Source of the DNA: a virus
Direction: 5' to 3' (one strand)
DNA: 57,716 nt
Virus record (IMG/VR): IMGVR_UViG_3300050501_000396
Shown: positions 1-52,402 of the stretch, piece after piece
How positions within the stretch are numbered: the stretch's first letter is position 1
How the letters are laid out: each line of letters begins with the position of its first letter
Notes under the pieces: generated by a model
Databases searched by the model: none
What the model was told of the DNA's origin: nothing
The model's input: only the letters and a program-made list of their open reading frames with translations
Position numbers and translations under genes: made by a program

Positions 1-127
1 GAGCGGTGTCCGGGGCGGTGCGACGTGATGGGGTGCGACGAGATGGCGGTGGGGGAGACGGAGGGCGGGGACTCGTACTGCGCGCGGCACCTGGCCGAGC
101 GACAGCCGAGGTGCCGATGAGCTGGGG
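1..127. repeat. 127-bp terminal direct repeat, copy 1 (identical to 57590..57716)
   Basis: nt 1-127 are letter-for-letter identical to the last 127 nt; ORFs continue across the junction. Confidence 0.95.
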
Positions 128-476
128 GAACCGAGTGACGGGCGCGCTCACGCCGGCCTGTGGCTGCCCCTCGGAGGACTGGACGCCGCCAGGCGGGCCG
201 GTTCGTGTGGGCGGCTACGAGTACTTGGGCGGGCGGTACAGTTGCAGGAACCACCCCGCCACGATCGCCGTGGATGGCGTCGACAACGAGCAACTGCGAG
301 AGGAACTGGCCATCGAGCGCCACCTGCACGTGACCGTGACCGGGAAGAACATCGACCTGCACGGGCGTGTGCTCGAGCTCGAGGCGGTGCTGCAGCAGGT
401 GGTGACGTCGCTCGAGCGGGGTGACGTCCAGATCGCGAAGCAGTTGGCCGAGGCCGCCCTCGGCCCTAACGTCTAG
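117..476 (+). CDS. hypothetical protein (119 aa)
   Basis: Sub-ORF of 6..476; its ATG overlaps the stop of the RHH gene (ATGA) once the circle is closed; no domain recognised. Confidence 0.6.
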   Translation: MSWGNRVTGALTPACGCPSEDWTPPGGPVRVGGYEYLGGRYSCRNHPATIAVDGVDNEQLREELAIERHLHVTVTGKNIDLHGRVLELEAVLQQVVTSLERGDVQIAKQLAEAALGPNV

Positions 477-571
477 CCCCCGTACCACCACAGGTACCCA
501 AGGATCACCAGGCCAACGATGAGCAGGACGCTGGCCAGGGCCCTGAGCGTCTCGAGGGCGACGTCCCTCAC
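473..571 (-). CDS. small single-pass membrane protein (32 aa), possible lysis-cassette component
   Basis: Below the track cutoff; GTG at 571; VRDVALETLRALASVLLIVGLVILGYLWWYGG; starts 3 nt after the stop of 575..793; its stop shares CTAG with the convergent + gene. Confidence 0.3.
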   Translation of the reverse strand: MRDVALETLRALASVLLIVGLVILGYLWWYGG

Positions 572-574
572 GGC

Positions 575-793
575 TCACCCCGCCGGCGTGATGTCGAGGT
601 AGTACTCTCGGCCGAGCTCGAGCTGGTCGGCCGAGGCCTTGTTGACCGTGTAGAAGGTCAGCTGACCGGCCGGCGTCCACCTGAAGAACGATTCGTTCTC
701 GGGGCTGCCGCTTGTTACCGCGCGCATCGTGATGTTGAACTGCTCCCCGTTGGGCTCGACATTCTCGACCTTGAACTTGCAGCGAACGCTCAT
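575..793 (-). CDS. hypothetical protein (72 aa), last gene of the lysis region
   Basis: Track ORF; ATGA overlap with the o-spanin stop; soluble, no motif recognised. Confidence 0.6.
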   Translation of the reverse strand: MSVRCKFKVENVEPNGEQFNITMRAVTSGSPENESFFRWTPAGQLTFYTVNKASADQLELGREYYLDITPAG

Positions 794-1191
794 TGATTTG
801 CTCCTTCACCTTGGGGCGTAGCAGAGCCGTTTCTTGCACCGCTTGGAGCGGCACCAGACGAACCGTTGGCGCCCGACCCGGACGGTGCTCCGGCAGGCTG
901 GACAGAGCCACACCTCGCCTGGACTTCCTCGCGCCACGCCTTCGCGGCGTTGAGGTTCTTGGTGAGCGTCTGCGTCGCGACGAGATCCAGGCACACGATG
1001 TGCGGGGCGAGGCACGTGCTACCTGGATCCCCCACGTACTCCGCCCGGATCGGCAGGAACTCCGGCTCCGGCGGCAGCACGCACGCCGCTGGCTGCGGGC
1101 TGGGCGACGGCAGGGCCAGCGGGGGCGGCTTGTGGGCCACCGAGCAGGCGACGAGCGCGGTCAGCAACAGCAGTGGGCTCCAGATTTTCAT
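790..1191 (-). CDS. outer-membrane lipoprotein spanin (o-spanin-like)
   Basis: Signal peptide with lipobox LVAC, then a Pro-rich mature N-terminus; starts inside the i-spanin gene in another frame and extends past it (overlapped Rz/Rz1 architecture). Confidence 0.6.
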   Translation of the reverse strand: MKIWSPLLLLTALVACSVAHKPPPLALPSPSPQPAACVLPPEPEFLPIRAEYVGDPGSTCLAPHIVCLDLVATQTLTKNLNAAKAWREEVQARCGSVQPAGAPSGSGANGSSGAAPSGARNGSATPQGEGANQ

Positions 1192-1447
1192 CGAGTACTC
1201 CTTCGAGGCGCGCGATCTCCTCGGCCTTCAGCGCGATGATCTTCTCCAGGCGGATGCTGGTCTCGATGTGGGCTGAAGCCTCGCGTCCGAGGTCGCGCAC
1301 CGTGTCGGCGTGCAGCTGGCGGGCGCGCTTCAGCTCGACGTCCAGCCGGCCCGTGGTGACCTTCGCGGCGGCGTAGGCCAGCGCCAGCCCCACGGCGAGG
1401 CAGGCCATGGCGGCGATGATGAGAGCGAGGCCGACGGCGGCGGTCAC
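1019..1447 (-). CDS. inner-membrane spanin (i-spanin-like)
   Basis: GTG start; N-terminal TM helix (AVGLALIIAAMACLAVGLALAYAAA) followed by a coiled-coil-like region; embeds the start of the lipoprotein gene. Confidence 0.6.
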   Translation of the reverse strand: MTAAVGLALIIAAMACLAVGLALAYAAAKVTTGRLDVELKRARQLHADTVRDLGREASAHIETSIRLEKIIALKAEEIARLEGVLDENLEPTAVADRARRLLGGPQAAPAGPAVAQPAASGVRAAAGAGVPADPGGVRGGSR

Positions 1448-1530
1448 TCGAGCACTTGCTCCCAGTCTTCCGCAACCTTGGACCAGAATAGTTCTGGCGT
1501 CATCGGCCGGCCGCTAGGCTTGCCCTTCAT
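1444..1530 (-). CDS. tiny coupled ORF (28 aa), doubtful
   Basis: ATGA overlap with the metzincin stop and GTGA overlap with the i-spanin start; MKGKPSGRPMTPELFWSKVAEDWEQVLE; no TM segment. Confidence 0.2.
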   Translation of the reverse strand: MKGKPSGRPMTPELFWSKVAEDWEQVLE

Positions 1531-2123
1531 GGCGCCTCCACCCGCGACACGACCGCACCCCGTGGCGGGTGTAGCGCGCGCGCCAGGCGGGCATCTCCTT
1601 CGGTGATCCGGTAGAAGCCCTCGGTATCCCAGTTCCCCATCAGAGACTTCTTCATGCTCCGGCGCATGATGCTGGTGTCGTTGGTACTGTGGCCCAGACC
1701 GAGGGCATGGCCGAGCTCGTGGGTCGCGTTGTGGTAGACGGCTACGATGTCGATCGGCTCGAGCGTGACCACCGTGGATGGACGACCATTCTCACACTCG
1801 CTCGCTGCCAGGCCGGTAGCCCTGTCTCCATGGTCGTCATCGGACACGTCGCCTGTGACCATGAGCACGTCGCTAGGCTTCTCCGCATCCTCGTGCCAAA
1901 CGAAGGCGTCGCGACCCATGGCGTAGTTCCAGTCGCTCATCGCTCGAGCTACCTGGCGGCGGTACCCCTCCGCGCTCTTGTCGATGTCGACGGTGATGGG
2001 CAGGTCGCCCCATGACGTGCAGACGTCGGGCCCCGCCGGGGGCGCGAGCACTCGAGGGATGGGGACGGCGCAAGCCGCAAGGAGGCTGAACGCCACGAGG
2101 GCGCCGAGAAACCGTCGGGTCAT
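1527..2123 (-). CDS. secreted lipoprotein zinc metalloprotease, metzincin (matrixin/serralysin-like M10) fold
   Basis: Lipobox LLAAC; HELGHALGLGHS (HExxHxxGxxH) followed by a SIM Met-turn; sits where an endolysin is expected. Confidence 0.75.
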   Translation of the reverse strand: MTRRFLGALVAFSLLAACAVPIPRVLAPPAGPDVCTSWGDLPITVDIDKSAEGYRRQVARAMSDWNYAMGRDAFVWHEDAEKPSDVLMVTGDVSDDDHGDRATGLAASECENGRPSTVVTLEPIDIVAVYHNATHELGHALGLGHSTNDTSIMRRSMKKSLMGNWDTEGFYRITEGDARLARALHPPRGAVVSRVEAP

Positions 2124-2491
2124 GGGGTCGTTCCTTCCGTGGGAGCTGGCGCGGGCGCCACTTGGCGGGCGCCGGTCACACGCGCAATCTCGAGAAGCTG
2201 CTCGTGGATGAGCTCGAGACGATCCTCCAGCTTGTCGAGTGAGCGCTCGACGACGCCAGTGCGCGTCTCCAGGACCCGCACGTCTGAGCGGAGCGCGCCC
2301 ATCGGCGCCCTCACCTGCTCGACGTCGGCCCGCGTGGCGTGCTGTGAGCTCCAGAGCGCTGCGGAGGCGCCGATCGCGAGCAGCGCGGCGGCGGCGCCGG
2401 CGAAGCCCTTCAGCCAGCCGAGGCGCTTGTGGCCCACCTCGAGCCGGTCTTCCAGTGGGCCCGGCGAGAACACGTGGCGCGGCTGCGTCAT
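2120..2491 (-). CDS. type-II membrane protein with periplasmic coiled coil (second i-spanin-like or holin-like protein)
   Basis: One TM helix (GFAGAAAALLAIGASAALW), then heptad-like LDKLEDRLELIHEQLLEI; ATGA overlap with the metzincin gene. Confidence 0.6.
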   Translation of the reverse strand: MTQPRHVFSPGPLEDRLEVGHKRLGWLKGFAGAAAALLAIGASAALWSSQHATRADVEQVRAPMGALRSDVRVLETRTGVVERSLDKLEDRLELIHEQLLEIARVTGARQVAPAPAPTEGTTP

Positions 2492-2528: not shown

Positions 2529-4217
2529 CTACCAGCCGATCGCCGCGCGCAGGCCTTCGGCGAGCGAGGCGTGGCCGTTCTCGTTGGGATGGACGGTATC
2601 GAAGTAGAGGTTGTTGGCGCCCGTCGAGTACGGCGTGATCAGCGTGGTCCCGTCGATGAGCGTCGCCCACGCGCGCGTCGACACCAGCGTCCCGATCTGC
2701 GTGCGGTAGGCGGCCAGCGTGTCACCGAGGCCGTTCGCGACTTCGCTCGAGCGCAGGAGCGGGGTCACGATCCAGATGCGCGCGCCGGGGTGCGCCGCGT
2801 GCCAGTCGTCCATCAGATTGCCGTACGAGGTCGAGAAGTTGGCCAGCGTCCACGACGCGCCGTTGTAGTCGTTGGTCCCGATGATGCTCACGATGTCCGT
2901 GAGCCGGATCCCCATCGAGCGGCGCACGAACGCGAGCCGCTTGGTCGCATCATCGGTCATCGAGCCGACGGTGCCAGCGCCGCAGTCCTCGGCCAGTTGG
3001 CGCCCGCTGTGCGCCTCGCAGATGATGCCGCCAGGGAACGACTGCCGCATCACCGGCACGACGCCGCCGAGCAACGCATCGGTGCAGCCATGGCCGGCGG
3101 AGATCGAGTCGCCGTAGACCATCATCTGCCGGCCGCGGTTCTCCATCGGCGGCAAGACCTCGAGGTACACGTCCGATGGGACGTAGAGCGCGTTGATGGC
3201 GGACCCGACGATGACGGGCGCCGGGATCGTGCCCGAGTTGTCTTTCAGCGGCGCATAGATCTCGACCGTCTTGACGCCGGGCGGCAAAGTGAAGGTCGTG
3301 ATGTTGTAGCTGTTCAGCGCGCCGACGAGCGGGATCACGCCGATCGCCTTGCCGTCGACGTAGACTCCTGGGTGCGCGTTCGCGCTCAAGAACTGCCGCA
3401 GATAGTCGACTGCGATCACCGTCGAGTTCGTCCGGAACACCAGGCGCGCGCCAGCGCTCGAGTCGTTCTTGCGCGACGTCGCGCCGAAGCGCAGGTTGTC
3501 GTGCCACATGCCCGAGTGGACGACGACGCGGGCGAAGCTCGCGTTGAACGGTGCGGCCAGGCTGCCGAGCGGAATCAGGCGCACGCGGGTGACCAGCGCC
3601 GTCGCCTGGCTGGTGGTGCCCTTGCCCGTGTTGTGGACGTGGATCTGGCAGCGATACTCGGTGCCGGCGACGACCGCGCCGACGCAGGTGAAGCGCTGCA
3701 CCGCCGTCGTGAGCACGCAGACGGTCTCCGAGATCACGGTCGTTCCGTCGACCTGGTAGAGGCCGATCACGATCGTCTGGTTGGTGAACGTGGCCGGCAG
3801 CTTCGCGTCCACTTGGAGTTCAACCTGGGTCGCACCCACCGGTGCCACGAACTGGTGCGCAATCCGACCACTCGCCGGTGCGGCCTGGTTGCGGTTGAGT
3901 CGCACCGCGTCCGCGCGCGTGGCCCCGTCGAGGTCGACATAGCTCTCGCGGCTGGGCGTCTTCTTCGGCGCGTTGGACGAGTCGATGACGTCCCACTGCT
4001 TCGCGTAGACATCGCCCAACAGGATTGTGTTCAGCTCGATCATGACGTCGTCTCCTGGAATCGGTGCGGGTGCTGGCGTCGCCACGAAGTTGCCGCCGCT
4101 CTGCAGGGCACGCGGAGCCCCGGGCGGGCGACCTACGAACACGCCTCCGCCAGTGGGCTGGGCATCCGAGCCTGAACCTGAACCTGAACCTGAACCGCGC
4201 TTGCTGCTGAAGCCCAT
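2529..4217 (-). CDS. tail fibre/spike protein with C-terminal SGNH (GDSL) esterase domain
   Basis: 562 aa; N-terminal (GS)n linker; C-terminal blocks VYGDSISAG, GTNDY and DTVHPNENGH (DxxH). Confidence 0.75.
   Translation of the reverse strand: MGFSSKRGSGSGSGSGSDAQPTGGGVFVGRPPGAPRALQSGGNFVATPAPAPIPGDDVMIELNTILLGDVYAKQWDVIDSSNAPKKTPSRESYVDLDGATRADAVRLNRNQAAPASGRIAHQFVAPVGATQVELQVDAKLPATFTNQTIVIGLYQVDGTTVISETVCVLTTAVQRFTCVGAVVAGTEYRCQIHVHNTGKGTTSQATALVTRVRLIPLGSLAAPFNASFARVVVHSGMWHDNLRFGATSRKNDSSAGARLVFRTNSTVIAVDYLRQFLSANAHPGVYVDGKAIGVIPLVGALNSYNITTFTLPPGVKTVEIYAPLKDNSGTIPAPVIVGSAINALYVPSDVYLEVLPPMENRGRQMMVYGDSISAGHGCTDALLGGVVPVMRQSFPGGIICEAHSGRQLAEDCGAGTVGSMTDDATKRLAFVRRSMGIRLTDIVSIIGTNDYNGASWTLANFSTSYGNLMDDWHAAHPGARIWIVTPLLRSSEVANGLGDTLAAYRTQIGTLVSTRAWATLIDGTTLITPYSTGANNLYFDTVHPNENGHASLAEGLRAAIGW
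4171..4200 (-). repeat. perfect hexanucleotide tandem repeat (CCTGAA)x5 encoding the (GS)n linker
   Basis: Five identical units read directly; lies in codons 8-17 of the fibre gene. Confidence 0.9.
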
Positions 4218-4796: not shown

Positions 4797-5105
4797 ATGA
4801 AAACTCTTGCGCTGGTGCTCCTCGCTCTCGTCCTCATGGGCTGCTCCGAAGAGACCGCCTCGACAGTGTCGCCCAGCGAGCAGCGCTGCGCCGCGATCGC
4901 CGAGTGGCAGTGCCGCTGCGACGCCGGCGCGGACGCCAAGCGCGCCGCCCAGTGCATCGACTACACCGTGTCGCTGTGCCTGGACTACCCGAACTTGCAG
5001 GAATGGTCCGCGTCGTGCGAGAGCGCACTGGCCGAGCTGGCATGTCCGCTGAACGGCCCCATCCCCGAGGTCTGCTCGTACGCGACCGGCGATCCGACTA
5101 ACTAG
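4797..5105 (+). CDS. Cys-rich secreted lipoprotein (moron on the opposite strand)
   Basis: MKTLALVLLALVLMGC lipobox; 8 further Cys residues; the only + strand gene inside the tail module. Confidence 0.7.
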   Translation: MKTLALVLLALVLMGCSEETASTVSPSEQRCAAIAEWQCRCDAGADAKRAAQCIDYTVSLCLDYPNLQEWSASCESALAELACPLNGPIPEVCSYATGDPTN

Positions 5106-6251: not shown

Positions 6252-7106
6252 CTACGCGACCAGTCGGCGCTCGGTGTAATGCAGAATTCCTGCAGCCTTG
6301 CGCTGCCGCAGCGCCTCGTGGATGGCCAAGCGCAGAGCCTCGGTGGTCCCAAACGGTGTGATCGCGACCATCGCCGCTGGTTGACCCGGCCCGCTCATTC
6401 GGTAGCCCCGGCCGAAATAGGCGTCCTTCCGGTTGTGCAGCGCCCCGTTGACCTTCCAGGTGCCGCCGTAGGTCTCAGCGATGCCGGAGGCGTTCGTGTA
6501 CTTCACGCCCGTGTTGCCCGTGAAGCCCGTGATCGTGAAGTCGCCGTTGTTGGCTCCCGAGGTCGCCCCGGCGATGGTGAGGATCTTCCCCTGCATCCAC
6601 GCCGCCCACGGCGCCGCCGCGAGCGTGAGCGTCATCGTCGTTCCGACCTTGGTGAAGGCGTCGGCGCCGGCGCCCGTGCCGGTGGACTGCTGGCGGGTGA
6701 GGAACCACGCGCGATCCCTGCGCAGCTCGACCAAGCCGAAGTCGTTGGAACTCACGCCGCCGGCATCGAGCATCGCGTCGATGAGCGCGAGCAGCGCCGG
6801 CCGCGTCAGCATGTCCGTGAATGTCCGCAGGCGCTGGCGCAGCGCGGCGTCCGTTTCGGCGTTGGCGCGTGACGTGTCACGATCGCGCGCGTGCTGGCCG
6901 AGCCAATCGGGCTCCAGCCCCGTCGCGCCGACGGCCGTCAGGATCCCGCCCTGGGCTCTCCAAAAGTCGACTTGGGTCTGGACGCGCGCGAAAATCTTTA
7001 CGAGAGCCCCCATTTCCTCTTCAGCGCGGGCGCGCTCGAAGAGCCAACTGGGCAGGCTGCCCCGGATCCAGTCATAGATCGCTGTCTCTTCGGCAGTGAA
7101 CGGCAT
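6252..7106 (-). CDS. baseplate protein (P2 gpI / Mu gp48-like by position)
   Basis: 284 aa, downstream of the J-like gene in the baseplate block; family name assigned from synteny only. Confidence 0.45.
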   Translation of the reverse strand: MPFTAEETAIYDWIRGSLPSWLFERARAEEEMGALVKIFARVQTQVDFWRAQGGILTAVGATGLEPDWLGQHARDRDTSRANAETDAALRQRLRTFTDMLTRPALLALIDAMLDAGGVSSNDFGLVELRRDRAWFLTRQQSTGTGAGADAFTKVGTTMTLTLAAAPWAAWMQGKILTIAGATSGANNGDFTITGFTGNTGVKYTNASGIAETYGGTWKVNGALHNRKDAYFGRGYRMSGPGQPAAMVAITPFGTTEALRLAIHEALRQRKAAGILHYTERRLVA

Positions 7107-7649
7107 CTAGATGTGTCTCCACCACTCGCGGCGCACGATGAATCCGATGTTCCCCTGACTAACGCCGAAGGCGCGAGCCAGGCTCCGCTGGGACTCGCCA
7201 CGCGCGGCGCGCGCGCGAATCTCGACGACCTCGTCCGCGGTCAGCCGCGCAGTGCCTACGCGCTCACCACGTGCCAGCTTCTCCGGGTGCAGGCGCGATC
7301 CGTGCCGCTCCCCGCTTGCAGTCCGGCGACGATCGATGATCCGAGCGCCGGTCGCCTGCCGTCCCTTGGCCACCATGTCGGCATGGTTGTCCGCCTGCGT
7401 GCCGAGAAAGAGGTGATCGGGCCGTACACACCGTGGGTTGTCGCACCTGTGCAAGACATCAAGTTGAGGTGGCGGCTCTATACCACGCGAGAGTTGCCAG
7501 GAGACGCGATGGGCACCTGTATCGCCCATGCCCCTGGGACCGAGGGCGATCCGGCCATAGCCACGCCGCCGTCCAGCCCGCCACTCCCAGCAGGCGTTGC
7601 CGTCGGCCTTCGTCACCTTCGGCCAGAAGCGTTCTTCAATTGCGCGCAT
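7107..7649 (-). CDS. HNH homing endonuclease with C-terminal HTH
   Basis: AHRVSW...HRCDNPRCVRPDHLFLGTQADN (HNH_3-type); 0-nt and 3-nt gaps to the flanking baseplate genes. Confidence 0.8.
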   Translation of the reverse strand: MRAIEERFWPKVTKADGNACWEWRAGRRRGYGRIALGPRGMGDTGAHRVSWQLSRGIEPPPQLDVLHRCDNPRCVRPDHLFLGTQADNHADMVAKGRQATGARIIDRRRTASGERHGSRLHPEKLARGERVGTARLTADEVVEIRARAARGESQRSLARAFGVSQGNIGFIVRREWWRHI

Positions 7650-7652
7650 CGT

Positions 7653-8759
7653 CTACTCCGCAGCCAGAGTGATGCTGCCCGCCCGGATGACCTCGTTCGC
7701 CGCCGCGCTCACGTCGGTCGAGAGCACGACGCCGAAGGTCGCGTCGACGTAGAACGTGATCCTGAAGATCCGGTCGGGGTCGACGGCGATGAGCGCGCCC
7801 TTGAGCTCGTCCAGGTAGAGCGTCTCGCCCATCGTCAGCTTGCCCATGCGGTTCGTGATCGCGGCCTGCAGCACCGTGAGGCTGGCCGCGACGTTGAGGC
7901 CCGCCTTGACCTTCAGCTTCGCGAAGACGTTCACGGTCTTCAGCACGGCCGAGTTGACTTGGACGACGGTCCCGGCCGCCCGCCAGTTCTCGAGCTCGGT
8001 CTGGACCAGGGCATTGAGCTCGGTGTTGGAGTTGCCGGTGCCATCGGCGACGAAGACGGTCACGAGCCCGGTCGCGCCCTCGCTCACCTTGGCCGAGGCC
8101 ACGCCAGGCACGGTGCGCGCGCCGTACTCGAGCGCCGCGATCGTGCCGCGACGGATGGTGCTCGGGAACGTCCGCACCCGTTCGCGGTACGACTCGTCGC
8201 TCTCCGCCTCCGCTCCGCCTGCGGCGCGCGCGGTGTTGTTCACCGTGAGCGTCGAGTCCCAGAGCGTGGTGAGGATGCGGGTGATTTTGGCGATTGCGAC
8301 GTTGCCCGCCGCGCCCGCCACCTTCGCGCGCGCGGAGACTGTCTTGGCGCCCGTCTCGGCCGCGCCGTAGGTGACATCCGCCAGCGTCTCGAACTGCACC
8401 TCGTTGCCGAGCGTGTCCACGAGCGTGGCGACGATGGTCCCGGTGAAGATGGTGCCCGCGCCGGCCGCAGCGGTCGCGCGGTTGAACGTGAGGGTCACCA
8501 GCGCCTTCGCCGCAGCCTGGGCGACGATGCCGTAGCGGTCGTCGCCCAGCGCGCGCAGCGCATCGCCCCTGGCCGTGTCGAGAAAGAGCTCGGCGAACCT
8601 CGCCGCGGCGTAGCCTACCGACTTGTCGGCGCCGGCAGCCGCCGCAGCCAGCAAGAGGTCAGTCACATCCCCCGGCTCAGCAAAGAGATCCGGCCGGCGC
8701 AGTTGGAGCTCCGCCCGGCCGACGGCAAATAAGTCCTCGTAGCTGGGCGAGATGGCCAT
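7653..8759 (-). CDS. baseplate J-like protein (P2 gpJ / Mu gp47 family)
   Basis: 368 aa; position after the gpW-like gene; overall J-like pattern. Confidence 0.6.
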   Translation of the reverse strand: MAISPSYEDLFAVGRAELQLRRPDLFAEPGDVTDLLLAAAAAGADKSVGYAAARFAELFLDTARGDALRALGDDRYGIVAQAAAKALVTLTFNRATAAAGAGTIFTGTIVATLVDTLGNEVQFETLADVTYGAAETGAKTVSARAKVAGAAGNVAIAKITRILTTLWDSTLTVNNTARAAGGAEAESDESYRERVRTFPSTIRRGTIAALEYGARTVPGVASAKVSEGATGLVTVFVADGTGNSNTELNALVQTELENWRAAGTVVQVNSAVLKTVNVFAKLKVKAGLNVAASLTVLQAAITNRMGKLTMGETLYLDELKGALIAVDPDRIFRITFYVDATFGVVLSTDVSAAANEVIRAGSITLAAE

Positions 8760-8789: not shown

Positions 8790-8984
8790 CTACGCGTACG
8801 CCGCCCGGATGAGCAGCTTCTGTATCTGCTCGATCTCCTCGCCCTGGGCCTCGACGATGGCACTCGCGAGCCCGTCGACTTCGAGATCGGTACCGTCCTT
8901 GAGCACCATCTTTGCCATCTTGATCGCCACGCGGTGGTGCTCGATCATCTCGCGGAGGAACTTCTTGTCGGCCGCGTTGAGCAT
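8790..8984 (-). CDS. single-repeat DUF305-like (HH metal-binding helical hairpin) protein
   Basis: DKKFLREMIEHHRVAIKMAKMVL...LASAIVEAQGEEIEQIQKLL matches the DUF305 repeat pattern D..FL..MI.HH..A..MA / LA..I...Q..EI as recalled. Confidence 0.5.
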   Translation of the reverse strand: MLNAADKKFLREMIEHHRVAIKMAKMVLKDGTDLEVDGLASAIVEAQGEEIEQIQKLLIRAAYA

Positions 8985-9421: not shown

Positions 9422-10050
9422 TTGGACCTCAACACGGTGGTGCCGGCCGGCGCCGACGGGGCCGCGAAGCTGGTCACTGGGGCCGCGGCCGTGCCCGTGC
9501 CACCCGCGCCCGCCGCCGCTGCGATGGTGAGCACGTGGATGTGCGCATCGAACACGGTCTTGTGGGCGTCCACCGTCGCCTTGAGCGCGTCCACGTCCGC
9601 CTTGGTCGCCAACGGTACCGCCTGGCTCGCCGTCCCGTCGTGCACGAGCAACTGGCCGCCGGTGGGCACGCAGGCGACGTAGGTTGTCGGCCCCAGGCCG
9701 TCCGGCACCTGCCCCATCGACTCGGCGGCGATGATGACCGGACCGGCCTCGAGTTCGCCGCCCGGCACACCCACGATGACCTCAGCGCCCACCTGCGGGA
9801 TCGCCCAGAAGCCCCGCCCGGCGCCGCCGCCGAGCCCGCTGAGGCGCGCGGAGCAGCGCACGAGCGACGGCTGTAGCTCGACCTCAACGAGCACGTCCGC
9901 GCCGCCCTCGACGATCTCGAAGTGGCTGCCCGCGTCGGCTACCACGATGCCGCGCGCGACGTGCACGCTGCCATCGTCGAGCAGTTCGCGCCATCGGCTC
10001 ACGTCGAGGCGTACCGTGGGCTTCTGCGTCCTGCGCCGCCGAACCTTCAT
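9418..10050 (-). CDS. baseplate spike/hub protein gpV (Mu gp45-like)
   Basis: Trimmed to ATG 10050 (ATGA overlap); OB-fold-like IPQVGAEVIVGVPGGELEAGPVIIA; Ala/Gly-rich C-terminal tip. Confidence 0.6.
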   Translation of the reverse strand: MKVRRRRTQKPTVRLDVSRWRELLDDGSVHVARGIVVADAGSHFEIVEGGADVLVEVELQPSLVRCSARLSGLGGGAGRGFWAIPQVGAEVIVGVPGGELEAGPVIIAAESMGQVPDGLGPTTYVACVPTGGQLLVHDGTASQAVPLATKADVDALKATVDAHKTVFDAHIHVLTIAAAAGAGGTGTAAAPVTSFAAPSAPAGTTVLRSK

Positions 10051-11477
10051 AGCGCCTCCGTAGGGACCGCGACAAAGTCCTGCAATTCCACGTCGATCTC
10101 GATGCCGCTCTCTGCGGAGAAATCGTACGAGCACTCGCGGATCCGCAGCGGGCCGCGTAGCGTGTCCACGACGTCGAAGTTGCGGCTGAGGAACCGCGCC
10201 ACGTCGTCGGGGAAGCCTGCCGCGCGCAGCCGCTCCGTGCGCGTGGCCTCCGACAACTGCGCCAGCGCCTCGGTGTTGTAGACGTCGAAGTCGATGGCGG
10301 CGGCGTCGCCGGTGCGCATGGTGAGCAAGTCATTGCCGTGCAGATCGACGAGGTCATTCGTGCCGATGTGCACGGTCTGCTCGCCGCGCGCGATCAGGTC
10401 GTAGACGGTGCGCGCGATCTCACGCAGTTGCACCTCGCTGGTGATGCCGTTGACCTGGTAGAGCTTCACCTGGTCCCGCTCGGTCCCGACGCCGGTGGCC
10501 GCTTTCTGGCCCTTGGCTGGGTAGCGGCCGGCGTAGGTCTGGCGCGTGCGCTCGTCGTAGCTACGGACCTCGATCTGTGGGTTGATCTCCTTGCCCATGT
10601 GGCGCTGGACCTCGAGCCGGGTGAGGTTCCGGCCCCAGGCGAAGCGGCGGATCGGCTGGGTCGACTCGGAGGGCAGGCGGAGCAAGCCCGCGCGTGCCTG
10701 CGCGAGGACGTGCGGCTTGGTAAGCACGACGTCCATGCCCTCGACGAAGAGGATGAAGCCATGCATCTGGGCCATCCGATAGGCCACGTCCCAGAAGGAC
10801 GACTTCTCCTTCACGGGTTGGCCCTTCTTGTTCGTTCGCCGCGCAGTCGAGCCCACGATGGGCAGCGAGGACTTCAGCGACTCGGGCTCGACCCGCAGGC
10901 GCGTCACGCCTCCGGGGTCGCCTTCGCGGACGAGCTGCTCGAGCTGGACGTCCAGCCGCAGGCCCGACGGGCTGCGCCGGCGCGGATCCCACTCGCGCCC
11001 GGTGAAGAGCGCCGTGTAGTCCTGGCCGTCCAGGCTCACCGTGTGGCCCGAGTCGCCGTACTCGGACGCCACGTCGTCGACGAGCCCGGCGAGCAGCGGC
11101 TTGAGCAGCACGTTGCCTTGCGCATCCTGCGGCACCGGAGCGCCGAGGTAAGGCGCGTTCCACAGGAAGAGCTCGACGGCGGCGGCGCGGATCTGCTTCG
11201 GCGCGATGGGCAGCATGCGCGCGTCGAACTCGACGTGGAACGAGTCGGGCTTGTTGTAGCTGTTGCGCACGACTTTGAGCGCGCTCGGGCGCGCCGGCAC
11301 GAAGACGGAGTTGTTGAAGCGCCGCACGAGCCCACCGAAGCGCGGGTGTAGCTCGAGCCCCTCCGGCGGCCTCCCTGTCTCCATGACGACTGCCAGGCCC
11401 ACCAGCGCGGAGGGGTAGAACACCTTGCCTGCGGGCCCCTGCGCGCCTGCGCGGGCCTTGTCGGCGAGCCCCGCCAT
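10047..11477 (-). CDS. baseplate hub protein (late control D / Mu gp44-like)
   Basis: 476 aa between the LysM protein and gpV, the canonical gpD position. Confidence 0.55.
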   Translation of the reverse strand: MAGLADKARAGAQGPAGKVFYPSALVGLAVVMETGRPPEGLELHPRFGGLVRRFNNSVFVPARPSALKVVRNSYNKPDSFHVEFDARMLPIAPKQIRAAAVELFLWNAPYLGAPVPQDAQGNVLLKPLLAGLVDDVASEYGDSGHTVSLDGQDYTALFTGREWDPRRRSPSGLRLDVQLEQLVREGDPGGVTRLRVEPESLKSSLPIVGSTARRTNKKGQPVKEKSSFWDVAYRMAQMHGFILFVEGMDVVLTKPHVLAQARAGLLRLPSESTQPIRRFAWGRNLTRLEVQRHMGKEINPQIEVRSYDERTRQTYAGRYPAKGQKAATGVGTERDQVKLYQVNGITSEVQLREIARTVYDLIARGEQTVHIGTNDLVDLHGNDLLTMRTGDAAAIDFDVYNTEALAQLSEATRTERLRAAGFPDDVARFLSRNFDVVDTLRGPLRIRECSYDFSAESGIEIDVELQDFVAVPTEAL

Positions 11478-12532
11478 CAGCCAGCCCCAGCGATCACAAG
11501 GATCTCATCACCGGTCATCACGGTGGCGGTGAGCCCGTTGCGAGCGGCGATCGATCGCCAGTGGTGCGGCGAGCCGAAGAAGCGCGTGCTGATGCCGTAG
11601 ATGTGCTCCCCCGACTGCGGACGGTACAGCGCGCGCGCGGTCGGGTCGGCGCGGTCCGAGAGCGCCTGGGCCGAGTCGGTCGAGTGCAGGCCGAGCAGGC
11701 GGAGTTGGAAGCCCAGCTCCTTGGTCCACTGGTCGAAGCGCAGCACGTCGGCGGCGGTCCGGTAGCCCATCTCCGTGTCCGAGCGCAGCACGATGAGGCG
11801 GTTCAGCGCGCTCGCCGCCGAGCCGCGGATCTGAGTGAACAGCTGAGCCATGCGCAAGATCCCGCCCCGGTCGTCGCCGCCCGGCAGGACGAGGCGTTGC
11901 TGGAGCGCGCCATCGGCCTCAGCGAACGAGGCCTCGATCGCGTCGAGATCCGAGCCGACGTCGGCGAAGACCGTCCCCTCAAGCGCGGCCACGGGCGCCT
12001 CGCCACGTAGCTCGCCGAGCTGGGCGACGTCCTCCGCCAGGGCGTCGGTGAGCGCCGAGGCGGACAGCGGGCGGTTACTCACGTCGGGGAGGCGCAAGAA
12101 CTCGGCGTCCTCCTCGCTCTGCGGCGACAGCGTGAAGCGGTAGGCGATCTTGCTGTCGTGCGAGTAGGTGTACTCCGCGTCGGTGATGAGCCCCACCCAC
12201 GACAGCCCGTTGAACTCGAGCCTCACCAAGTTCGCGCGGCGCACCATGTCGTTGAAGGCGCGTCGCGTGGATCGCGCGAAGCCGGCGCCGTTCCATCGGT
12301 CGTCCCACTCGCCCTCGAGCTCCTGGTCCTTCGAGTTCGGCCCCAGCACTTGGTACGTGGGCGCATCGCCGCCCGAGTAGTCGGTGCGTTTGTGGCGCAC
12401 CGACGTCCCGAACGTCCACGGACGGCGCCATCCCGAGTGCTTGTCGGCGGTCCACTCGAAGCGCGCGGCGCCGCCCGGCACGTCGGCGCCGGGGGCGACC
12501 AGTTCGGTGACTACGAAGCGCTCGGCCGCCAT
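11477..12532 (-). CDS. tail/baseplate protein with C-terminal LysM domain (P2 gpX / Mu gp43-like role)
   Basis: C-terminus YRPQSGEHIYGISTRFFGSPHHWRSIAARNGL...GDEILVI is LysM-like; directly follows the tape measure gene. Confidence 0.6.
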   Translation of the reverse strand: MAAERFVVTELVAPGADVPGGAARFEWTADKHSGWRRPWTFGTSVRHKRTDYSGGDAPTYQVLGPNSKDQELEGEWDDRWNGAGFARSTRRAFNDMVRRANLVRLEFNGLSWVGLITDAEYTYSHDSKIAYRFTLSPQSEEDAEFLRLPDVSNRPLSASALTDALAEDVAQLGELRGEAPVAALEGTVFADVGSDLDAIEASFAEADGALQQRLVLPGGDDRGGILRMAQLFTQIRGSAASALNRLIVLRSDTEMGYRTAADVLRFDQWTKELGFQLRLLGLHSTDSAQALSDRADPTARALYRPQSGEHIYGISTRFFGSPHHWRSIAARNGLTATVMTGDEILVIAGAG

Positions 12533-32448: not shown

Positions 32449-32639
32449 GTGACCTCCTGCGCGGGAAGCACGACACCCCTGGCGCGTAGACGGTCCGCCC
32501 GGTGCTTCGAGTAGCCCTTGCACTTTCCCAGGCGCCTGTCGACCTGAGCCGCCGACTCGCACAGCCTCCACGCCCGGAGGAAGTCCTCATCGCTACAGTC
32601 GGCCGCGGGGCCCGGCTGGCGCTTCCTGGTGCCGCTCAC
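32445..32639 (-). CDS. hypothetical protein (64 aa)
   Basis: Trimmed to GTG 32639 (GTGA overlap). Confidence 0.4.
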   Translation of the reverse strand: MSGTRKRQPGPAADCSDEDFLRAWRLCESAAQVDRRLGKCKGYSKHRADRLRARGVVLPAQEVT

Positions 32640-32806
32640 CGCCTGCCTCCCAGGAACGTGATCGCCGCATCGAGGGCGTGGCAGAACCCATGCAGCCACG
32701 CCGGGACGGCGAGCAAGGCGAACAGCACCAGGAGCCTCCAGGGGGCGAGGTCCCACGACGCGGCCAGGGCGGTAGCGATTAGGGCGCAGACGAGGGCGGT
32801 GCGCAT
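32636..32806 (-). CDS. small two-TM membrane protein (56 aa)
   Basis: Below the track cutoff; MRTALVCALIATALAASWDLAPWRLLVLFALLAVPAWLHGF... Confidence 0.4.
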   Translation of the reverse strand: MRTALVCALIATALAASWDLAPWRLLVLFALLAVPAWLHGFCHALDAAITFLGGRR

Positions 32807-35060: not shown

Positions 35061-36262
35061 GGCGTCACCCGGCGGAAGCTGATCGCCCACACCCACGGGT
35101 TCGACGACCAGGGCGCGCGGTCCTCGTTGATGTCGTTCCACAGACGGCGGAACAGGTCGCGCGCAGGCTTGTAGTGCGCTGGGTTAGCGCCCGCTGGCAG
35201 CATGCCCTCCGCCCGTGCGTCCCTCTCGCTGATGTCCTGCAGCCGCTGGACCCGGACATCCTCAATCTCCAGGGTGATGCGCGAGGCCCAGCGGGGCATG
35301 AAGATCGAGGGCCGCCATGGCTGCTTGGGGGTACGCAGGATAGTCTTGCCCTCGACGATGACTGGCACTTGGCCGCAGTGGTCAGTGTCGGCTCGGTACC
35401 CAAGACCGGCCGGCATCTCGCCGCGCGCCTCGAACATCTGCCACGTCTCTCTTACCCAGAGGAGATCGCCCCGTCGCAGATGGCTCGTATCGAGGCCTGC
35501 GCCACACCGAGAGCACGGGCGGCATGGCTCTGGCTGCACAAACCATGCGTCACCGCCCAGCGAATGTGTTCCCTCTCCACGTCCGTGAACTTCGAGGAGT
35601 GATGCCTCTCGCCCATGGCCACTCGCCCGTGCATTCTCCGGTCCTGCCAGTTCTCGACCTGCGTTCCCCACGCCAGGTTCTCCGGCGCACAGTTGCCCGC
35701 GTCGCCGTCGAGGTGGCGCACTTGCATCGACGGCGACGGCTGCGGCCCGTGGAAAGCCAAGCAGACCAGCTTGTGCACAGTCTTCGTGACCTTCCGGTTC
35801 TCGTGGCAGAGCGTCACAGTCTTGTATGCCTGCTTCGATCCGCGATTCTTTGGCAGTCGCGCCTTCATCGGGGACCAGTCCACCCGCTCTTTGCGACCGA
35901 ACCCGGCGTACCGCGTCCGGCTGTAGATCTGTCCGTCCGAACCCGCCATGTAATCGTCGTTCGGCGAGACCGGGATGGTCCTCAGCGTCACGCCACTCGG
36001 TAGTGTTGTCATGTCCACATCCGTAGCAAGTGAGTCTGCCACCGGGCGCTCCGTAGGGGCACCACTCGGCGATGCACTTCCGCGGGGCGTCGTCGCTCCA
36101 CCATTCGGTCTTCCAGTGCCAGCCGTTCCCGCCCTGAAAAACCATCTCGTTGATACGTCGGTCCGGCTGCGGAGTCATCACCCGACGTGTCTGGCTCTTG
36201 GTCCCGGCGAGTAGGGCCCTGACCATCGGCGACGAAAACAAAATCTGACGCTCACGCATCAC
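35057..36262 (-). CDS. ASCH-like (PUA-fold) phage gene interrupted by a 573-nt insertion; conserved parts 36041..36262 and 35057..35467
   Basis: MVRALLAGTKSQTRRV...CPYGAPG || DLLWVRETW...RPSIFMPRWASRITLEIEDVRVQRLQDISERDARAEG; the 191 residues between are Arg-rich off-frame-like sequence. Confidence 0.6.
   Translation of the reverse strand: MMRERQILFSSPMVRALLAGTKSQTRRVMTPQPDRRINEMVFQGGNGWHWKTEWWSDDAPRKCIAEWCPYGAPGGRLTCYGCGHDNTTEWRDAEDHPGLAERRLHGGFGRTDLQPDAVRRVRSQRAGGLVPDEGATAKESRIEAGIQDCDALPREPEGHEDCAQAGLLGFPRAAAVAVDASAPPRRRRGQLCAGEPGVGNAGRELAGPENARASGHGREASLLEVHGRGEGTHSLGGDAWFVQPEPCRPCSRCGAGLDTSHLRRGDLLWVRETWQMFEARGEMPAGLGYRADTDHCGQVPVIVEGKTILRTPKQPWRPSIFMPRWASRITLEIEDVRVQRLQDISERDARAEGMLPAGANPAHYKPARDLFRRLWNDINEDRAPWSSNPWVWAISFRRVTP
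35452..36012 (-). CDS. HNH homing endonuclease (NUMOD4-like N-terminus + HNH_3)
   Basis: IPVSPNDDYMAGSDGQIYSR...VHKLVCLAFHG...VRHLDGDAGNCAPENLAWGTQVEN; different frame from the host gene; its stop lies 16 nt inside the downstream conserved part. Confidence 0.8.
   Translation of the reverse strand: MTTLPSGVTLRTIPVSPNDDYMAGSDGQIYSRTRYAGFGRKERVDWSPMKARLPKNRGSKQAYKTVTLCHENRKVTKTVHKLVCLAFHGPQPSPSMQVRHLDGDAGNCAPENLAWGTQVENWQDRRMHGRVAMGERHHSSKFTDVEREHIRWAVTHGLCSQSHAARALGVAQASIRAICDGAISSG
35468..36040 (-). mobile_element. HNH-endonuclease-bearing insertion splitting the ASCH-like gene
   Basis: Boundaries inferred from where the family motif CPYGxPGDxLWVRETW is broken; length 573 nt (multiple of 3); almost fully occupied by the HNH ORF. 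Confidence 0.55.
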
Positions 36263-37303: not shown

Positions 37304-38419
37304 TCAACGCGCGCCGCCCTTCAAGGCCTCGCCCACGACGCAGTCGTCGCCGTGCGAGTCCGGGTGCCATCCGAAGCAGCCGCTGCAGTGGCCGAGCCCG
37401 CTCACCAGCGGCTTCGGCGGCCGCTGGCCCATCGACAGCCTCGCGGCCCGCTCCCATCGGGCCACGCGAGCGCGCAGCGCCCCCACCTCGGCGAGCAGAG
37501 CCTCGCCGGCATCGGAGGCGAGGGCGCGCTCGAAGCGCTCGACGTTCTCCAAGTGCGCGAGCGAGTCGCGGGCGTTCACGCGGTCGAGCAGCTCAAGCAG
37601 ACCCCGCTGTAGGTCCCGCCCCAGGTAGATGTCGAGGCAGTGCTCGACGCCGGCGCGCAGTTCCTCGGCCTCGCCGCCATGGGTCGTGCCGTGGACCGGG
37701 CACTTGGCCTGCGACGCCTGCAGGTCGAGCCGGAGGGACGCCACCTCCAACCGGGCGGCGTCGAGTGCGGCGTGTGCGGCGTCCCGCTCGGCTTCGAGGC
37801 GTTCATTGTCGCCCTCCACCACGCGAACGCGGGCCAGGGCGGCGTCGCGCTCGGTGACCGCAGGATGCACGATGGCGGTGTGCCCGATCGTGTCGTCGAG
37901 CATGGCGGCGATGGCGGGCAGGGTGTCGCGTGCCCGGCGGCCATACTCGGAGTCGAGATGGCTGGCGAGTTGCAGGGTCTCGCGCACGCCATGGAAGAGC
38001 GCGCTGTGCAGCGCCATCTCCGCCGCCACGTGCTTCGGCTCGACGCCACCCGGGTCACCACCGATGAGCAGACCGCTCGCCTCCTTCCACTCATCGATCT
38101 CTTCGAGCAGAGCATCGCGCTCGCGCTGCGCCTCGTTGCGCTCACCCTCCAGCCGCATGCACTCGTCGCGAAGGGCTAGCGTCGCCCGCAGCGAGCGCAC
38201 CTCTGCCACAAGAGCGGGCACATCGGCGGACGAGCGAACCGCAATAAGCAGCGACGCACCGCCCACACAGCGGTAGCAGCGCTCGCATGACACACTGTCG
38301 TAGCCCCGGGATGAGTTCACCCTCCATGCGTGCTCGCCGCCGTCGAAACAGGGACTCGGATTCGCCACCTTCGCGCGCTCCTCGATCTTGTCGAGCCGCT
38401 CGTCCGGAATCATCGACAT
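37304..38419 (-). CDS. long coiled-coil protein (371 aa)
   Basis: Track ORF; Ala/Glu/Arg/Leu-rich heptad-like segments flanked by Cys/His clusters. Confidence 0.55.
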   Translation of the reverse strand: MSMIPDERLDKIEERAKVANPSPCFDGGEHAWRVNSSRGYDSVSCERCYRCVGGASLLIAVRSSADVPALVAEVRSLRATLALRDECMRLEGERNEAQRERDALLEEIDEWKEASGLLIGGDPGGVEPKHVAAEMALHSALFHGVRETLQLASHLDSEYGRRARDTLPAIAAMLDDTIGHTAIVHPAVTERDAALARVRVVEGDNERLEAERDAAHAALDAARLEVASLRLDLQASQAKCPVHGTTHGGEAEELRAGVEHCLDIYLGRDLQRGLLELLDRVNARDSLAHLENVERFERALASDAGEALLAEVGALRARVARWERAARLSMGQRPPKPLVSGLGHCSGCFGWHPDSHGDDCVVGEALKGGAR

Positions 38420-39018
38420 GTGGCACCATTGACCGACTCAGACACGGCTCGCTCGTGACTCCAGCCGCGCCTCAGCCTGTGGGCCGCAGTCGGCACCTTA
38501 ATCCCGAACTGGCGGCACCACTCTGCCATGCACTTGGTCTCACCGGCGATTGTGATGAGCGTGTTATTACGCTTGTTCCGGTTCTGCTCCGTCGGAGTCG
38601 CCCACCGGCAGTTGGATGGCTCGTAGCCACGGCCGTTGTCGATGCGGTCGATGGAGTGGCTCCGCGAAGGAGCACGCCCCATGTCGGCAAGAAACGCCTC
38701 AAACGAGGCGTCCCACCGGGCGTCCATGGTGACGCCGCCTGCGTAGCCACGACTGCGTCGGGTCTTGATGCCTACCCAGATGGCGTACTCTCGGGTCCGT
38801 CTGCCCGGGCGTGCCTCGCCATGGGTGGACGAGCGCGCCGAAGTCATCTCACGACTGAGGCACCCACACGACGCGGTCGTGCCCCGCTTCACCGCGTACG
38901 CGAGTTTCGTGACGGTGGCGCCGCAGTCGCAGCGCATGACCCACCTCGCCTGATTCCTGGATGTCGGCACACCCTTGGACACGAATTCCAGTCTTCCGAA
39001 CTTGAGAGGGGCGGTCAC
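38410..39018 (-). CDS. HNH-type homing endonuclease
   Basis: SIDRIDNGRGYEPSNCRWATPTEQNRNKRNN motif; C-terminal HTH-like region. Confidence 0.7.
   Translation of the reverse strand: MTAPLKFGRLEFVSKGVPTSRNQARWVMRCDCGATVTKLAYAVKRGTTASCGCLSREMTSARSSTHGEARPGRRTREYAIWVGIKTRRSRGYAGGVTMDARWDASFEAFLADMGRAPSRSHSIDRIDNGRGYEPSNCRWATPTEQNRNKRNNTLITIAGETKCMAEWCRQFGIKVPTAAHRLRRGWSHERAVSESVNGATCR

Positions 39019-51415: not shown

Positions 51416-51419
<4 letters not shown>
50256..51419 (+). CDS. RecA-fold AAA ATPase (Sak4/AAA_24-like recombination protein)
   Basis: GTG 50256 (GTGA overlap); Walker A GFAGSGKTY, Walker B VLLIDSISH. Confidence 0.6.

Positions 51420-52402
<983 letters not shown>

Follow-up and report, generated by a model that had tools for sequence, protein, structure and literature searches.

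Introduction

In the textbook account, tailed phages lyse a Gram-negative host with a holin, an endolysin and a spanin. We have analysed IMG/VR virus record IMGVR_UViG_3300050501_000396, a stretch of 57,716 bases that we call the window, and in particular the seven minus-strand open reading frames (ORFs) at positions 473-2491. What is new here is a spanin-bearing lysis cassette that also contains a lipoprotein metzincin, a member of a phage family that is linked to holins and has not been characterised; the endolysin of the genome is missing or unrecognisable.

Which described systems come closest? Two-component spanins are found as an overlapped type, represented by P2 LysB/LysC, and as an embedded type, represented by lambda Rz/Rz1 (Kongari et al. 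2018, PMC6139136). As in the overlapped spanins, the window encodes a predicted inner-membrane protein in which an N-terminal transmembrane domain (TMD) is combined with a helical domain in the periplasm, and within its gene begins, in a different frame, the gene of a predicted signal peptidase II (SPII) lipoprotein; in its mature form this lipoprotein is Pro-rich at the N-terminus and keeps conserved Cys residues, and the pair lies within a lysis cassette. The o-spanin candidate of the window differs in being long (133 residues), because its 3' end runs across a probable third overlapping gene.

For the protease, experimental precedent is given by Mtz of Listeria, a secreted, phage-derived metzincin encoded downstream of the holin-lysin genes in prophages, which together with its TIMP-like lipoprotein partner, Tim, raises sensitivity to phage lysis in a catalysis-dependent manner (Boichis et al. 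2021, PMC8235301). Compared by description, both systems have a phage-borne metzincin with HExxHxxGxxH and Met-turn motifs that is encoded with lysis genes, and the window protein would, like Mtz, act outside the cytoplasmic membrane in a proposed accessory lysis function. Mtz has a signal peptidase I (SPI) signal, a separate lipoprotein partner and a monoderm host, whereas in the window the protease is itself a lipoprotein, in a phage with spanins and a diderm host. The window has no recognisable TIMP-like partner, and relatives of its metzincin are fused to holin-like modules; the lipoprotein nearest to the metzincin is that of the o-spanin-like gene, whose model (pLDDT 52) is too poor for a TIMP-like comparison.

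Accessory lysis factors that deal with a further mechanical layer of the envelope are a topic of current interest, and LysZ of the corynephages, a membrane protein, is one example (bioRxiv 10.1101/2025.06.24.661397). Like LysZ and the LysB of the mycobacteriophages, the metzincin gene is an extra lysis-cassette gene beyond holin and endolysin; LysB, an esterase, and LysZ, a membrane protein, act on mycolyl-arabinogalactan or lipoglycans, whereas the window has a predicted protease in a spanin-bearing phage. The signal-arrest-release (SAR) endolysins, such as P1 Lyz, and the signal-peptide endolysin Lys44 have a lysozyme or an amidase domain and come free when the membrane is depolarised. The metzincin is likewise a cassette enzyme predicted to reach the periplasm without a holin hole and to be held at a membrane, but a lipid anchor is not released by depolarisation, and the window is without a recognisable muralytic domain.

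The lipoprotein metzincin

The product of 1527-2123 has a PROSITE-type lipobox, LLAAC, with its Cys at residue 18. Its zinc motif, HELGHALGLGH at residues 135-145 (HELGHALGLGHS at 135-146), is an extended HExxHxxGxxH, and the Met-turn is SIM at residues 151-153, with Met153; all three elements had been claimed in the original prediction, which was made from the sequence of the window, and all are present. Pfam PF00413 matches at 31.6 bits, above its gathering score of 24 (E 1.8e-7), only the 31 residues of the motif region, 128-158, being aligned, and NCBIfam gave sub-threshold motif matches only. The AlphaFold2 model made with the family alignment (pLDDT 92, pTM 0.85) has its strands and helices in the order of the matrix metalloproteinases (MMPs). 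The best 50 Foldseek matches in the PDB are all MMPs, one of them full-length proMMP-1 and the other 49 isolated catalytic domains, with TM-scores (target length) of about 0.5-0.66 and E values down to 4e-7; in a viral structure library the nearest entries are unnamed or called 'Zn-dependent protease' or 'matrixin', and come from Lactobacillus, Maribacter, Tenacibaculum and uncultured phages. The stretch from the lipobox Cys to the first strand is only about 25 residues long, and the PRCG motif of the cysteine switch (PRCGxPD) is not present. With neither pro-domain nor cysteine switch, the metzincin is therefore matrixin-like in fold and not a classical MMP zymogen. By motifs and model, 1527-2123 encodes a lipobox protein of predicted MMP-type metzincin fold with an intact zinc site and Met-turn, that is, a predicted protease.

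The matrixins proper (MEROPS M10A/PF00413; human MMP-11, MMP-12 and MMP-13) share the zinc motif, the Met-turn and the overall fold, but identity is 15-21%, and the window protein has no cysteine-switch pro-domain and no haemopexin domain; it has instead a predicted N-terminal lipid anchor and a probable C35-C110 disulfide. An ImmA/IrrE-type (M78) anti-repressor protease, considered on account of a faint M78 match to the relative P0004, was ruled out by the signal peptide and lipobox and by the MMP fold. (P and L numbers are our designations for proteins and for related phage contigs.)

A HMMER search of 1.84 billion representatives returned 109 clusters (50% identity) at E<=1e-3, mostly of 170-210 residues. 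In an alignment of the 33 closest relatives C18, W65, H135, G138, H139, G142, S151 and M153 are invariant, and C35, C110 and H145 nearly so. A lipobox-like Cys is found in 79 of 103 motif-bearing representatives, and in 35 of the 36 closest. The catalytic Glu is replaced in five of these 36 (P0010, P0012, P0021, P0028 and P0034; three times by Gly and once each by Ala and Met), with the three His residues, the Met-turn and the lipobox retained, and these members are likely to be pseudo-proteases. One of them, P0010 (HGLGH; L170 1489-2460), is without the Glu yet is fused to a holin-like module. The family is phage-borne and found almost only in metagenomes. Protein searches of GenBank phages with the window metzincin and three relatives gave no match, and a metagenome scan with the family alignment gave only remote matches among the matches listed; the identical protein is encoded by 12 contigs, which come from several samples of JGI, ENA and Logan.

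Relatives and their lysis genes

What company does the metzincin keep? In one group of phages (group 1, about 65% G+C; L016, L018, L024, L029, L030, L033 and L036) an endolysin always directly precedes it, and the type of endolysin varies: Phage_lysozyme (GH24) in L016 and L018, an M15 peptidase in L029, L030 and L036, and in L033 and L024 a CHAP-like ORF, judged by eye ('PWCAIFVS...HTGFVEGV...TIEGNTN'). Elsewhere, L041 has an Amidase_2 gene directly downstream of the metzincin, and L019 a VanY+PG_binding_1 gene 2 kb from it. In all these phages the metzincin is plainly an addition to a normal endolysin. The swapped endolysin slot lies at about 7100-7950 in each group 1 locus (L036, 3714-4424), and endolysin modules are exchanged there, in phages that are alike in other respects, beside a constant metzincin and a constant transmembrane (TM) protein of 184-197 residues.

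Group 2 is the clade of the window, with metzincins that are 44-50% identical and the order tail fibres, metzincin, spanins, small TM peptide. In L001, L011, L165 and L169 a three-TMD module is joined to the C-terminus of the metzincin in a single polypeptide, an extension carried by P0002, P0005, P0006, P0008, P0014 and the L011 gene; in L166 and L170, as in the proteins P0009 and P0010, it is joined to a module of a single TMD and a soluble part. Both modules also stand alone. The three-TMD module does so as proteins of 104-181 residues with a KK...D tail. L163, which has no metzincin, encodes, in this order, an M15 endolysin, an 87-residue TM/coiled-coil protein, a three-TMD protein and an i-spanin/o-spanin pair, and its stand-alone three-TMD gene occupies the classical holin position. 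The single-TMD module stands alone in L164, as a 115-residue gene after the metzincin and the TM/coiled-coil gene, and has two weak PHROG holin-family matches (E 0.06 and 0.16). A protease domain at the periplasmic face of holin-like proteins links the metzincin family to lysis. The stand-alone three-TMD proteins P0113-P0116 and L162 6001-6534 have their own signal peptide and lipobox and a 'GIGTSPS' linker, which is also the linker of the metzincin-three-TMD fusions; the sequences suggest that the fusions arose by the joining of a metzincin gene to a downstream lipoprotein-holin gene.

Three contigs of this clade share a protein of 228-281 residues that ends the lysis region (L162 10259-10945, L165 6106-6951 and L169 12606-13409; 34-57% identity by tblastn). 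Profile searches against PDB sequences and Pfam found nothing for it, and the window has no homologue; it could be a cryptic endolysin of these three phages. In L011 an Amidase_2 gene lies two genes past the cassette, after an HNH endonuclease. Some distant members are placed otherwise: in L002 the homologue P0004 is a lone plus-strand gene between integrase and methyltransferase, and in L015 and L034 the metzincin has a similarly isolated orientation. Just downstream of the lysis genes of L170, 3146-3364 encodes a 72-residue protein with an Acb2/Tad1-hairpin Pfam match (anti-CBASS/Thoeris sponge family).

Genome setting and search for a muralytic enzyme

The ends of the window (1-127 and 57590-57716) are an exact 127-bp direct terminal repeat, which marks the window, of 68.4% G+C, as a complete genome that was assembled as a circle and measures 57,589 bp; a plus-strand gene at 57167-57709 runs across the circle join and ends at about 120. 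Calling by length and codon-position G+C gave 90 ORFs, with all gaps between genes below 400 bp. On the minus strand Pfam and PHROGs identify a large terminase, a portal, a Mu-F-like head protein, a major capsid protein, a tail sheath and baseplate V, W and J proteins; they also find DnaC/DnaD-like loaders, a ParB-like protein, repressors, a PAPS reductase, a Mom-like protein and, at 54948-56060, a tyrosine integrase. With its integrase, repressors, sheath and baseplate genes the phage is therefore temperate and contractile-tailed (myovirus-like). The cassette comes after the tail-fibre genes, a 37-nucleotide gap lying between them; no promoter- or terminator-like site was seen between the tail genes and the cassette, and where the cassette ends it runs into the convergent gene 117-476, at the 3' end of the latter. 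In our reading 473-2491 is the lysis cassette that closes the late (tail) operon of this soil phage, which is temperate and myovirus-like, has a complete, circular genome and infects a diderm of high G+C.

What is the host? A nucleotide search of GenBank phages with the left 25 kb of the window gave no match, and the best GenBank cultured-phage matches of the large terminase are at about 33% identity in unrelated hosts, so that the host is not inferable by the terminase. A genome scan with the metzincin family gave only remote, motif-level matches, the best in metagenome-assembled genomes (MAGs) of Sorangium and Polyangium; these matches and the G+C content may be taken as a weak hint of a Myxococcota host.

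It is unusual for a tailed phage to have no detectable endolysin in a complete genome. The original prediction makes the claim that this one encodes no recognisable muralytic enzyme. All 90 called ORFs were scanned as concatenates with Pfam (E<0.01) and PHROGs (E<0.001), and Pfam was also run on alternative-frame ORFs and doubtful calls. At the level of these profile searches the claim holds. Neither Pfam nor PHROGs gave a match in the 90 ORFs to lysozyme, transglycosylase, amidase, LAS/M15, M23, CHAP or NlpC/P60, the same families were not found by Pfam in plausible alternative-frame ORFs of the window, and there was no PHROGs match of the 'lysis' category among the called ORFs. Nor did tblastn and phmmer find anything in the window with ten endolysin seeds, which comprised endolysins of the relatives and four textbook ones (T4 lysozyme, lambda R, T7 lysozyme and P22 gp19). 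A canonical endolysin elsewhere in the genome, an observation that would count against the original prediction, was therefore not detected by Pfam, PHROGs, phmmer or tblastn. The wall-degrading enzyme is here either of an unrecognised type, or its role is covered by the metzincin.

A hidden endolysin was also looked for in the convergent gene 117-476, at the LysM-like C-terminus of 11477-12532 and in 4797-5105, a lipoprotein gene on the reverse strand, and nothing was found. This last gene (plus strand, opposite to its neighbours, inside the tail-fibre region) encodes a 102-residue Cys-rich lipoprotein with the lipobox LMGC; it resembles a moron and is possibly a superinfection-exclusion or receptor-masking lipoprotein. 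The GDSL/SGNH domain of 2529-4217 was considered as a LysB-like lysis esterase and rejected, as it is the C-terminus of a tail-fibre-like protein (minus strand, with PHROG tail-fibre matches and weak NCBIfam matches to acetyl-xylan esterases). The domain is not present in L011, L162, L165 or L166; in L001 (9054-9632) and L169 (7868-8458) it is a stand-alone esterase of 192-196 residues, whereas it is fibre-fused in the window. It is probably a receptor-modifying (deacetylating) tail-fibre enzyme.

The 123-residue protein and the holin candidates

The 123-residue protein that begins the cassette has one hydrophobic segment, at residues about 26-47 by hydropathy, and a 35-residue stretch in which 90% of the heptad a/d positions are L, I, V or M. 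A word-index search of 5.8 billion proteins found no homologue of it. Among the related contigs, L162 has a full-length homologue of 120 residues (30% identity) just upstream of a divergent lipoprotein metzincin, L164 has one of 136 residues just downstream of the metzincin, and the 87-residue protein of L163, which is built in the same way, is encoded between M15 endolysin and three-TMD protein. PHROG matches are weak only, including one to an XhlA-type 'hemolysin' family (E 0.037), and the likeness to class III holins is one of topology only.

No obvious holin of ordinary size had been recognised in the genome, and this is borne out: neither the three-TMD nor the single-TMD holin-like module was found in the window, which leaves the 123-residue protein and the 32-residue peptide as the only holin candidates in the cassette. 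Far from it, in the early region, a 56-residue minus-strand ORF with two predicted TMDs (32636-32806; third-codon-position G+C, GC3, 0.91) is a remote holin alternative.

The 123-residue protein and the metzincin had been proposed to form a spanin-like pair. The comparison of loci does not support that proposal. The TM/coiled-coil gene and the metzincin are together in the window, L162 and L164, in reversed order in L164; the former is found without the latter in L163, and the latter without the former in L001, L011, L165 and L169. Since the partners are separable and their order is not fixed, the comparison argues against an obligate spanin-like pair and for a holin-region function. The metzincin is moreover a globular enzyme domain of 180 residues, unlike the small, largely unstructured o-spanins. 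We regard the 123-residue protein as a candidate holin-region partner (holin, antiholin or holin partner) rather than an i-spanin, and as the best holin candidate of this phage.

The cassette, its spanin pair and its smaller genes

All seven minus-strand ORFs of the predicted cassette are present (Table 1), and the overlaps that were said to chain them are seen as ATGA at 2120-2123, ATGA at 1527-1530, GTGA at 1444-1447 and ATGA at 790-793; the last junction is a 3-nucleotide gap between 575 and 571. GC3 fits the proposed frames, being 0.92 over 1192-1447 in the i-spanin frame and 0.82-0.95 over 880-1190 in the lipoprotein frame, with the switch between the two at about 1190. Homologues of the metzincin, the i-spanin, the o-spanin and the 32-residue peptide are found in the same order in L001 and L011, and all of these except the 32-residue peptide recur in L162. 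Because GC3 tracks the frames and homologues keep their order in relatives, the cassette ORFs are real genes rather than chance ORFs.

Table 1. Features of the lysis cassette of the window (aa, amino acids; nt, nucleotide positions)
Feature	Coordinates	Strand	Remarks
123-aa type-II membrane protein	2120..2491	-	Predicted short cytoplasmic N-terminus, one TMD (~nt 2351-2416), periplasmic coiled coil
198-aa lipoprotein metzincin	1527..2123	-	Lipobox Cys18 nt 2070-2072; HELGHALGLGH nt 1689-1721; Met153 nt 1665-1667
28-aa ORF	1444..1530	-	Probable remnant of an HNH homing endonuclease N-terminus
142-aa i-spanin-like protein	1019..1447	-	N-terminal TMD, charged helical periplasmic domain, low-complexity tail across the overlap
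133-aa o-spanin-like outer-membrane lipoprotein	790..1191	-	Lipobox Cys16 nt 1144-1146
69-aa very basic four-Cys ORF	806..1015	-	Wholly inside the o-spanin gene
Counterparts of 806..1015 in related contigs	L001 12069-12287; L011 9353-9565; L162 7196-7411; L163 5836-6054; L164 1550-1747		
72-aa soluble protein	575..793	-	phrog_6978 (unknown function), E 1.5e-10
32-aa single-TMD peptide	473..571	-	Closes the cassette; 4-nt overlap with the 3' end of convergent 117-476

The pair 1019-1447/790-1191 had been described as spanin-like, with the lipoprotein gene embedded as in Rz/Rz1. Its anatomy is that of a spanin in every respect looked at, but the genes are overlapped, in the style of P2 LysB/LysC, and not embedded: the o-spanin gene starts within the i-spanin gene, overlapping it by 173 nucleotides in a different frame. 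In L011, L162 and L163 the two genes likewise overlap, and in L001 an HNH insertion separates them. In the i-spanin the maximum of Kyte-Doolittle hydropathy over 19 residues (KD19) is 2.67, at residue 5, and a charged helical segment follows; its homologues in L011 (45% identity over 121 residues), L001, L162 and L163 are always immediately upstream of, or overlapping, a lipoprotein gene. The sequence AAMAC near the N-terminus of the i-spanin fits the PROSITE pattern for a lipobox and was rejected as a second one, as it lacks a charged n-region, the hydrophobic residues run on beyond its Cys, and homologues do not conserve this Cys.

The o-spanin candidate has the lipobox ALVAC (Cys16) and 14% Pro. 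In a five-locus alignment C16, C37, C60, C67 and C94 are invariant, the L163 homologue stopping just past an RCG motif. Its single-sequence AlphaFold2 model, which is poor, shows a Pro-rich disordered region and two helices and no beta-rich (OB- or TIMP-like) fold. No named spanin family was matched, the best PHROG Rz-like spanin match being at a non-significant E of 0.54 and Pfam giving none. Spanin families are very diverse and a missing family match is common, so that the failed match limits only the assignment to a named family. The sequences make a convincing case for an overlapped two-component spanin.

The nested ORF 806-1015 starts one codon past the i-spanin stop, in the same frame (0-1 codon in relatives). 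Its product has the pattern CxxC-x13-C-x4-C and a net charge of +13, and is 65-72 residues long across loci. It is conserved in L001 (63% identity), L011, L162 and L163, and more strongly so than the o-spanin sequence that this DNA encodes in the other frame. Counted by codon position, the pairwise substitutions are 51/40/80, and synonymous to non-synonymous codon changes are 47:66 in its frame as against 30:88 in that of the o-spanin; both counts speak for its frame rather than that of the o-spanin. It is probably a real third overlapping gene, whose product is perhaps, by analogy, an Ogr/Delta-like zinc-ribbon regulator.

The 72-residue protein has 'hypothetical protein' homologues in nine GenBank phage records, and the one in Elizabethkingia phage EKP1 adjoins a 'lysis protein Rz'. 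The 32-residue peptide (GC3 0.94, KD19 maximum 2.34) has 31-residue homologues at the same position in L001 and L011. The 28-residue ORF has a GC3 of only 0.72 and no homologue in the related loci; its motif 'ELFWSKV' resembles 'ERFWPKV' at the N-terminus of the HNH_3 gene 7107-7649 of the window and 'ERFWDKV' at that of the L011 HNH, and in relatives intact HNH genes occupy the part of the cassette where the window has this ORF. It is probably the decayed N-terminus of an HNH homing endonuclease and not a lysis gene. HNH_3-type homing endonucleases are frequent in this phage group (in the window at 7107-7649, 35452-36042 and 38410-39018); the L001 HNH, at about 11340-12062, sits between the i- and o-spanin genes, and that of L011, at 9562-10155, precedes the amidase.

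Two other places in the window may be recorded. Between the gp25-like and baseplate-J genes, a 64-residue minus-strand ORF (8790-8984) matches the C-terminal 62 residues of Pfam DUF305 at 54.7 bits, an odd family for a baseplate module. The translation of 51191-52402 (plus strand) contains a long Ala/Asp low-complexity run, AADAAAAAADADADAAADAADADAADADAAADAADAAADAADAADADAAAAAAADAAAADDD, and its frame assignment is uncertain.

Discussion

The locus is a lysis cassette and its protease is a lipoprotein metzincin; on both points the original prediction is supported. What, then, does the metzincin do? The reading that we favour, with confidence that stops just short of even, is that it is an accessory lysis-associated periplasmic protease, neither a spanin subunit nor clearly an endolysin. 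The protein would be exported by Sec and lipidated at Cys18, would reside in the periplasm, and would act there on an envelope protein. Its target might be a tether between outer membrane and peptidoglycan, a protein of wall maintenance or a regulator of lysis, for instance the 123-residue protein with its periplasmic coiled coil. It would thus add a fourth, accessory lysis function to those of holin, endolysin and spanin, comparable to that of Listeria Mtz. We favour this reading because canonical endolysins as a rule co-occur where the context is readable, because the MMP cleft binds extended L-peptides and we know of no metzincin that cleaves peptidoglycan (a literature search found none), because members without the catalytic Glu persist, and because Mtz gives an experimental precedent.

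Several observations weigh on the other side. The genome is complete and without a recognisable endolysin, and among L001, L011, L162, L164, L165, L166, L169 and L170 a recognisable one is found only in L011 (the search in the other seven covered 3-20 kb each, and none was seen), as would be expected if the protease had substituted for it. Some distant members, such as that in L002, are in moron-like positions, and the five close members without Glu mean that catalysis is not always required. Finally, the holin identity of the fused modules is judged by size, topology and position, without a significant family match.

Might the metzincin then be the sole lytic enzyme of this phage and its nearest relatives, in place of a glycosidase, an amidase or a LAS/M23/CHAP peptidase? 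It would represent a new class of endolysin, Sec-exported and lipid-anchored (in relatives holin-fused), that cuts peptidoglycan stems or cross-links, with the 123-residue protein and/or the 32-residue peptide as holin, or it would kill by proteolysis of envelope proteins or of an essential wall protein, perhaps destroying or unleashing host tethers, synthases or autolysin regulators. The lack of a muralytic domain in a complete genome fits such a role, and no enzyme-like gene but that of the metzincin is shared by the cassettes of the window, L001, L162, L164, L165, L166 and L169; the slot of the metzincin lies between a holin-type gene and the spanins, and the related cassette without it, that of L163, has an M15 endolysin instead. 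Among host wall hydrolases MepS and the Mlt enzymes are lipoproteins too. Canonical endolysins, however, co-occur with the metzincin in L011, L016, L018, L019, L029, L030, L033, L036 and L041, a cryptic endolysin (230-280 residues) is possible in L162, L165 and L169, Sec export gives no holin gating, and peptidoglycan is, as noted, no known metzincin substrate; P0010 is holin-fused and Glu-less, yet no endolysin is found on its 7.7-kb contig. That no endolysin is recognisable stands; that the metzincin is the muralytic enzyme is weakened by the canonical endolysins that adjoin it in relatives and by the loss of the Glu in five of 36, and we consider the sole-enzyme role unlikely but not remote. 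The fusion of the metzincin to the periplasmic side of holin-like modules brings to mind a part in timing, in which it would set the lysis clock by degrading or binding an antiholin-type periplasmic domain (the coiled coil of the 123-residue protein) while anchored at or fused to the holin, a logic resembling the T4 T/RI system. The two genes co-occur in the window, L162 and L164, and the Glu-less members suggest that binding can suffice; but L163 has the TM/coiled-coil gene alone and L001, L011, L165 and L169 the metzincin alone, and the window has no recognisable holin module to regulate. We give this idea little credence.

Lipoprotein exclusion factors of phages are well known, and one might think of the metzincin as a moron, a lipoprotein that would serve in lysogenic conversion, exclude superinfecting phages or destroy a receptor, in the manner of T5 Llp or the Cor proteins. 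The cassette directly follows the tail-fibre genes, and P0004 of L002 lies between integrase and methyltransferase, with L015 and L034 similarly isolated. The metzincin gene of the window, in contrast, is chained by ATGA/GTGA overlaps in a late operon with no promoter-like site, and in the close clade the metzincin is always with spanins and holin-like genes, and sometimes fused. A lysogenic-conversion protease, which had been offered as the alternative to a lysis enzyme, is thus a misfit at this locus and fits a few distant members, such as that in L002, adjoining the integrase on the opposite strand; for the window a moron seems improbable. There is finally the model in which the 123-residue protein joins the metzincin in a second spanin-like complex, one that bridges both membranes and carries an enzyme. 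The topology is that of an i-spanin and an o-spanin, the genes are adjacent and overlapping, and the pairing recurs in L162 and L164. Against this, L164 has the two genes the other way round, either partner can be found alone, fused relatives hold the metzincin at the inner membrane through C-terminal TMDs, and a true spanin pair is already present; we think this model very improbable indeed.

What do these findings mean for lysis by tailed phages? In this locus and in related ones a fourth component recurs, a predicted periplasmic lipoprotein metalloprotease that has repeatedly become linked to holin-like proteins, even as a single polypeptide. The family is missing from the cultured-phage records (GenBank phages), so that its study starts from metagenomes, and the complete genome is a defined test case. 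If the metzincin is an accessory protein, then it points to a proteinaceous element of the envelope that has to go before lysis is efficient, a logic that parallels those of the spanins, for the mechanical outer membrane, and of LysZ, for lipoglycans. Should the metzincin stand in for the endolysin, tailed phages would have in it a new class of lysis effector, and it would offer a new antibacterial scaffold.

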